Shown piece by piece: positions 33,580 to 34,063 of a DNA stretch of 64,000 bases. Position 1 is the first letter of the stretch; each line of letters opens with the position of its first letter. Location of the stretch: the NCBI RefSeq assembly GCF_057098645.1, contig NZ_CM169472.1. The stretch is one strand, 5' to 3'. The translations under genes and the position numbers were made by a program. Below the pieces are notes generated by a model that saw nothing but the letters and a program-made list of their open reading frames with translations, was not told where the DNA came from and ran no database searches.

Positions 33580-33691
33580 ATTCACTATCGCCACTTTTAT
33601 TGGCGATGAAAAGATGTTTCGTGAGGCCGTCGACGCTTATAAAAAATGGATATTAATACTGAAACTGAGATCAGGCAAAAGCATTCACTAA
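33548..33691 (+). CDS. kil: Kil (host killing / FtsZ inhibitor)
   Basis: [47 protein letters not shown] matches recalled lambda Kil. Confidence 0.8.
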
Positions 33692-33766
33692 TCCCCTTTC
33701 CTGTTTTCCTAATCAGCCTGGCATTTCGCGGGCGATATTTTCACAGCCATTTTCAGGAGTTCAGCC

Positions 33767-34063
33767 ATGAACGCTTATTACATTCAGGATCGTCTTGAGG
33801 CTCAGAGTTGGGCGCGTCACTACCAGCAGATCGCCCGTGAAGAGAAAGAGGCAGAACTGGCAGACGACATGGAAAAAGGCCTGCCCCAGCACCTGTTTGA
33901 ATCGCTATGCATCGATCATTTGCAACGCCACGGGGCCAGCAAAAAAGCCATTACCCGTGCGTTTGATGACGATGTTGAGTTTCAGGAGCGCATGGCAGAA
34001 CACATCCGGTACATGGTTGAAACCATTGCTCACCACCAGGTTGATATTGATTCAGAGGTATAA
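33767..34063 (+). CDS. gam: Gam (RecBCD inhibitor), short form
   Basis: [60 protein letters not shown]... near-identical to lambda GamS. Confidence 0.9.

Follow-up and report, generated by a model that had tools for sequence, protein, structure and literature searches.

The Gam protein of phage lambda is described as one that "exists in two isoforms" (PMC5218532), the long GamL (138 aa, NP_040618) and the short GamS, which corresponds to residues 41-138. In the lambdoid prophage analyzed here the ATG equivalent to the start of GamL is out of frame with gam, and the question raised by this locus is whether that difference reflects an error in the assembly, the decay of a formerly functional reading frame, a long form produced by some unusual route, or ordinary variation. 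The sequence under study is a stretch of 64,000 nt taken from contig NZ_CM169472.1 of assembly GCF_057098645.1, referred to below as the window.

Gene order and the short form of Gam

The + strand of the window between 33,400 and 35,531 carries early-left genes of lambda in the order cIII, kil, gam, bet and exo, and pairwise alignment with lambda (NC_001416) gave a DNA identity of 98% over the region. The kil gene (33548..33691, +, 47 aa) was recognized by reading the sequence; it is 144 nt long, as is kil of lambda, and in NZ_CP024127 the PGAP annotation has kil at the corresponding place. The gam gene lies in this early-left operon directly 5' of bet (34069-34854, 261 aa) and exo (34851-35531, 226 aa), all of them on the + strand; the last two genes were taken from the list of open reading frames and from the annotation of NZ_CP024127, and the Red operon 3' of gam (34069..35531, +) is intact. 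That record is the chromosome of E. coli 14EC001, which matches the 20 kb around the gam site at 99.8% and whose prophage bears the PGAP labels Kil, a 98-aa "host-nuclease inhibitor Gam family protein", Bet and Exo.

The window contains an E. coli lambdoid prophage integrated adjoining mlrA (yehV). Its integrase adjoins mlrA (yehV) and yehW-yehX-yehY-osmF, at about 38450-40500 of the window, a position assigned by correspondence with a related locus; mlrA (yehV) is the integration site of the Stx1 prophages of O157:H7. The early-left region also includes an IS3-family element (about 29810-31023, - strand) encoding a 108-aa OrfA and a 295-aa OrfB, which presumably resembles IS629. The element is located upstream of an N-like antiterminator gene (31523-31906) and could be polar on transcription of gam, bet and exo from pL; its position differs in the closest genome, 14EC001.

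The gam gene itself (33767..34063, +) is intact in its GamS form of 98 aa, as supported by Pfam, by alignment with PDB chains and by the PGAP annotation of the near-identical genome. Residues 1-98 of the product align with positions 1-98 of the 98 positions of Pfam PF06064 (E 3.4e-65), with a score of 216.8 bits against a gathering cut-off of 25, and the same residues align end to end with the PDB chains 5MBV_A and 2UUZ_A (E 2.5e-61). The solved Gam chains, 2UUZ and the RecBCD-bound 5MBV, are 98-99 residues long, and the Pfam model matches lambda residues 41-138, leaving out residues 1-40. When compared with lambda GamS (residues 41-138; 2UUZ, 5MBV; PF06064), the window protein differs at only two residues, L21I and S61A, both conservative, and the two loci share the same Shine-Dalgarno sequence, the same start and the same kil-gam-bet-exo order. 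With an identity of about 98% to lambda GamS, the window protein is predicted to inhibit RecBCD.

The Shine-Dalgarno sequence of GamS, AGGAG (33755..33759, +), is located 7 nt before the ATG, and its duplex with the anti-Shine-Dalgarno sequence was calculated at -6.9 kcal/mol in the window and at the same value in lambda. The pairing at the GamL ATG, by comparison, was +0.4 kcal/mol in lambda and window alike. This motif was invariant across all the sampled leaders, an invariance of AGGAG and of its 7-nt spacer that follows from the search patterns with which the loci were collected. Moreover, even where a genome has an open 138-codon reading frame, PGAP/RefSeq gives the 98-aa form. Gam of the window would thus be translated as a 98-residue protein starting at 33767, where the strong AGGAG precedes the ATG, and this GamS would represent the conserved, structurally characterized unit that inhibits RecBCD.

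The frame difference from lambda and its distribution

Alignment with NC_001416 located the site that differs from lambda at 33748..33753 (+), where the window reads AGC-CAT-TTT-CAGGAG and lambda AGC-TAT-TTC-AGGAG. Two changes are involved: C33748, which is T in lambda, and one additional T in the run TTTT at 33750-33753, which is TTT in lambda. The preliminary description had given this difference (cattttcagg against tatttcagg), and the alignment with the lambda gam region that it proposed agrees with it: the upstream ATG lies 121 nt from the GamS ATG in the window and 120 nt in lambda, so that the two lambda starts share a frame and those of the window do not. The ATG of lambda GamL and its first 34 codons are otherwise preserved in the window, with four substitutions (K10R, T16I, P25L and Y35H).

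The reading frame opened by this ATG (33646..33798, +) has 50 codons by translation, and we regard it as a remnant of the kind named "gam alternate" in one phage record. Its start codon is indeed out of frame with gam, as had been described; the stop, however, had been placed before the GamS start, and it is found instead at TGA 33796-33798, 29 nt beyond the GamS ATG, so that the two reading frames overlap by 32 nt. At its other end, the last 46 nt of kil overlap this reading frame in a different frame. The earlier proposal that only the short form could be made holds for ordinary translation: in the GamS frame the nearest 5' stop is TAA 33710-33712, no ATG, GTG or TTG is present from there to 33767, and the window consequently has no in-frame ATG about 120 nt upstream with an open path to gam. 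No Shine-Dalgarno pairing was detected 5' of the ATG at 33646 (duplex dG +0.4 kcal/mol), and a Pfam search with the 33646..33798 product gave no match. The reading frame is probably not a gene, and we infer that it is not translated to a meaningful extent.

The arrangement of the window is already known. Stx2-converting phage 86 (NC_008464), in public annotation for years, carries "gam alternate" (YP_794101, a 153-nt reading frame) followed by an overlapping 297-nt "gam" (YP_794100), the same layout as in the window. The phage 86 "gam alternate" product and the 50-aa product of the window are identical at 46 of 50 residues, and the CATTTT leader is the same. VT1-Sakai and 933W also share the gam layout of the window, and VT1-Sakai annotates only the 98-aa gam.

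How common each version is was determined with 31-mers that span the site, which match only where the site is identical. Of 5,426 complete E. coli genomes, 2,198 contain the exact window 31-mer, at 2,457 places in all, and 782 contain the lambda 31-mer, at 821 places; the window variant thus occupies three times as many places. The window version was also found in 89 phage records, including VT1-Sakai, the EDL933 Stx phage/933W, Stx2 phage I, phage 86 and P27, and the lambda version in 86, many of which are lambda itself or laboratory derivatives.

These counts bear directly on the suggestion that the additional T is an anomalous insertion, possibly a read error, that should be resequenced. 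The difference does lie in a short T-run, a type of site prone to indel errors, and the error would be a miscounted homopolymer in this particular assembly. Nevertheless, the identical 31-mer is present in 2,198 independent complete E. coli genomes as well as 89 phage records, obtained with many technologies, the additional T is linked to a T>C substitution, and the leader haplotype met most often in viral contigs, among the matches listed, is that of the window. A sequencing or assembly error is therefore vanishingly improbable, and we rejected it on the allele counts in E. coli genomes and phage records.

We also sampled IMG/VR, where 120 contigs with the GamS start region were among the matches listed, about 112 of them evaluable; these loci were collected by exact 26-27-mers, and the proportions given here describe that sample and are not a census. 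Among the matches listed, 77 of the approximately 112 gam loci combined CATTTT with no in-frame upstream ATG, and 22 had the lambda-type in-frame ATG at -120. The long form is encodable in only about 20% of the gam loci of this 120-locus viral sample, again among the matches listed; with this proportion, and with outgroups that lack it, the GamL extension does not behave as a conserved part of the Gam homologues. Six further lambda-type leaders among the matches listed were frameshifted elsewhere (119 nt). In about 60 of the IMG/VR loci among the matches listed kil is replaced by a different gene, and these loci are hence without the GamL ATG; overall, the ATG of the 33646 reading frame is missing from more than half of the gam loci among the matches listed. 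The kil stop (33689-33691) appears as a mosaic breakpoint, homology to the window resuming at ...CACTAA where another gene replaces kil. Leader lengths of 66, 76, 77, 78 and 79 nt were recorded in the sampled viral contigs among the matches listed, which indicates that no reading frame is kept through the leader. Counting polymorphisms by codon position across the whole set of GamS haplotypes (48/37/50) gave no useful signal.

In a wider comparison, the Gam proteins of Salmonella SEN34 (69% identity) and Shigella 75/02 (83% identity) both begin at the methionine of GamS and have no ATG upstream in the same frame; in 75/02 the stop of the preceding gene abuts the start. The Gam-like protein of Enterobacter CobraSix starts at the equivalent methionine, MNA(Y/W), and likewise has no in-frame upstream ATG.

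A second reading is that a functional GamL was recently inactivated by a frameshift in a degenerating prophage. The long reading frame is indeed broken relative to lambda, and the prophage of the window has an IS3-family element in its early-left region. Against this, the same allele is carried by the inducible, plaque-forming phages 933W, VT1-Sakai and phage 86, it outnumbers the lambda allele three to one, the outgroups have window-like spacing and no long form, and gam, bet and exo each remain intact. Decay is accordingly an unlikely account of the locus, and pseudogenization was rejected because of the outgroups and because viable phages carry the allele.

A third reading would restore the long form by a programmed +1 frameshift at CAU-UUU-C, where tRNA-Phe would slip from UUU to UUC and join the 33646 reading frame to gam. 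UUU-pyrimidine sites are shift-prone in E. coli, and the 33646 frame contains the P-site codon UUU-C at 33751-33754; a slip there would read ...S-H-F-R-S-S-A-M-N..., nearly the lambda junction, and its product would be a GamL that differs from that of lambda by Y35H at the junction. However, the A-site codon that follows is CAG, which is not a slow one, there is no Shine-Dalgarno-like stimulator upstream (AGGAG lies downstream of the slip site), and the initiating ATG at 33646 has no Shine-Dalgarno. Leader indels occur at other sites too, and the ATG and upstream reading frame are missing in more than half of the CATTTT gam loci among the matches listed; absence from most loci with the same leader argues that no conserved frameshift mechanism operates here. 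We consider such a frameshift exceedingly improbable.

We conclude that the window very probably carries the commonest natural allele of lambda gam, one that yields GamS only, and that where it departs from lambda it shows normal variation of a leader that is not conserved. The gam gene of this prophage would then be normal, with nothing to resequence, and the matter is of little weight for this genome. For annotators and first-pass readers the practical consequence is that the frame difference should not be flagged as a pseudogene.

A hairpin in the gam leader

The 75 nt from the kil stop to the GamS ATG would, on this interpretation, form an untranslated leader rather than coding sequence. 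Within it, a scan, a minimum free energy (MFE) fold and covariation pointed to an RNA hairpin at 33712..33736 (+), composed of AUC-A-GCCUG, the loop GCAUUUCG and CGGGC-GAU, and followed by AUUUUCA. The hairpin is located 31-55 nt 5' of the GamS ATG, within what in lambda are GamL codons 23-31 approximately. A scan for a terminator-like consensus flagged its inner stem (33716-33733), and the MFE fold contains the same stem.

Covariation was evaluated on 40 distinct leaders from diverse lambdoid contigs, gathered in two scans of viral contigs. RNAalifold kept a 4-bp core helix for these 40 distinct leaders, with three pairs showing double-sided changes. Under an 8-bp model of the hairpin, which was derived from one of the tested sequences and is thereby somewhat favored, 86.9% of cells were paired as compared with 35-46% in slid controls, 28 cells had double changes, and none of 500 shuffles reached the observed score. 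Frequent U·G pairs make the hairpin specific to RNA of the gam sense. The folding energy of the single leader sequence was unremarkable (z -0.87); support for the hairpin comes then from covariation and not from energy.

An Rfam scan of the leader found no known family, its sole match being the cIII thermoregulator upstream. This known element (RF01804, Lambda_thermo) is located at 33402-33460 (+; 88.5 bits, E 4e-22), and just 5' of cIII there is another terminator-like hairpin (33366-33385, +), with an 8-bp stem followed by TTTTCGTTATG.

With respect to function, the hairpin at 33712-33736 has the GC-rich stem of an intrinsic terminator. After the stem, the window and lambda-type leaders have only AUUUUCA, and divergent leaders with the same hairpin have GGGAUCUGCACAUCC, with no U-tract. 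Luk and Szybalski reportedly mapped in 1983 the lambda terminator tL2c near lambda 33141, and we presume that the hairpin may be this terminator. Our best guess is that it acts as a weak, N-suppressible terminator or as an mRNA stabilizer before the ribosome-binding site of gam. As a covariation-supported element of the gam leader, it offers a small lead for studies on expression of the Red operon.

The hairpin also touches a fourth reading, in which the 50-codon reading frame encodes a small protein or acts as a regulatory upstream reading frame, its translation across the ribosome-binding site of GamS adjusting how much Gam is made. The 32-nt overlap with the GamS start fits this idea, the reading frame spans the hairpin so that its translation would unfold it, and it is annotated in one phage record. 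But it has neither a Shine-Dalgarno nor a family match, and it is not conserved, the ATG being missing in non-kil contexts and the frame and length being variable; besides, its sequence is explained by the overlap with kil together with conservation of the leader. A coding or regulatory role for it is very unlikely. We favor instead an untranslated gam leader, which would carry a conserved hairpin and tolerate indels that are not multiples of three.

The conserved segment extends beyond the hairpin. In the window, positions 33712-33790 comprise the hairpin, the ribosome-binding region TTCAGGAGTTCAGCC and the first codons (MNAY), and this combination is common to lambda-type Gam of 98 aa and to a different family of Gam-like proteins of 92-94 aa. 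Proteins of the type of phi80 "GamL" and CobraSix (92-94 aa) have in common with the window the hairpin, the Shine-Dalgarno region AGGAGTTCAGCC and MNAY, yet past residue 12 or so the protein is unlike Gam of the window (20% identity). Hairpin, ribosome-binding region and first codons form a junction module that is conserved across different downstream genes.

Origin and status of the long form in lambda

The preliminary description had assumed that the window gained a nucleotide, and the spacing between the hairpin and the Shine-Dalgarno points in the opposite direction, to a loss of 1 nt in the lambda lineage. Among the matches listed, AGGAG follows the 3' arm of the hairpin at a distance of 20 nt in the 32 loci with a lambda-type leader and of 21 nt in the 87 with a window-type leader; in the 84 loci whose divergent leaders stand before other types of Gam, the distance is 21-22 nt. 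Moreover, CobraSix also has C at the substituted position (the equivalent of 33748). Since the 20-nt spacing is seen only in the lambda type, the difference would be a 1-nt deletion in lambda rather than an insertion in the window, and the long reading frame of lambda is probably the outcome of such a lineage-specific deletion; this polarity relies on a handful of outgroup leaders from a region that is mosaic and recombines.

The sequence of events would be simple. A T-run shorter by 1 nt before the Shine-Dalgarno, in lambda and its close relatives, would place an ATG internal to kil in the frame of gam, and this in-frame ATG would create the 138-codon "GamL" reading frame. The difference would thus belong to the lambda lineage, in which a deletion is the most likely event, and would not be a defect of the prophage in the window. 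It is an evenly balanced proposition that GamL is a newcomer altogether, with the deletion in the T-run having fused the kil-internal ATG to gam, most lambdoid phages never making the long form, and the conserved element of the leader being the hairpin, as regulator or terminator, and not a peptide.

The long form of lambda is not to be called meaningless, however. In the 22 in-frame loci among the matches listed, 6 of the 14 distinct substitutions in the GamL extension were synonymous, where 22% would be expected, and the proportion is similar to that in the GamS core of the same 22 loci, 10 of 24. GamL may therefore be under some constraint at the protein level within the lambda lineage. Plasmid-expressed GamL and GamS have each been reported to cut the ciprofloxacin MIC about four-fold (PMC5218532); these data indicate that GamL is active when it is made, and are not proof that it is a natural product. 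The 98-residue GamS, on the other hand, appears as the conserved natural product across lambdoid phages, and the 138-residue reading frame of the lambda reference, used as "full-length Gam" in some constructs, as a minority form restricted to one lineage.

Finally, the name GamL is also in use for an unrelated anti-RecBCD protein of phi80 (PMC12315714), and the note "putative host nuclease inhibitor GamL" attached to CobraSix does not mean the long isoform of lambda.
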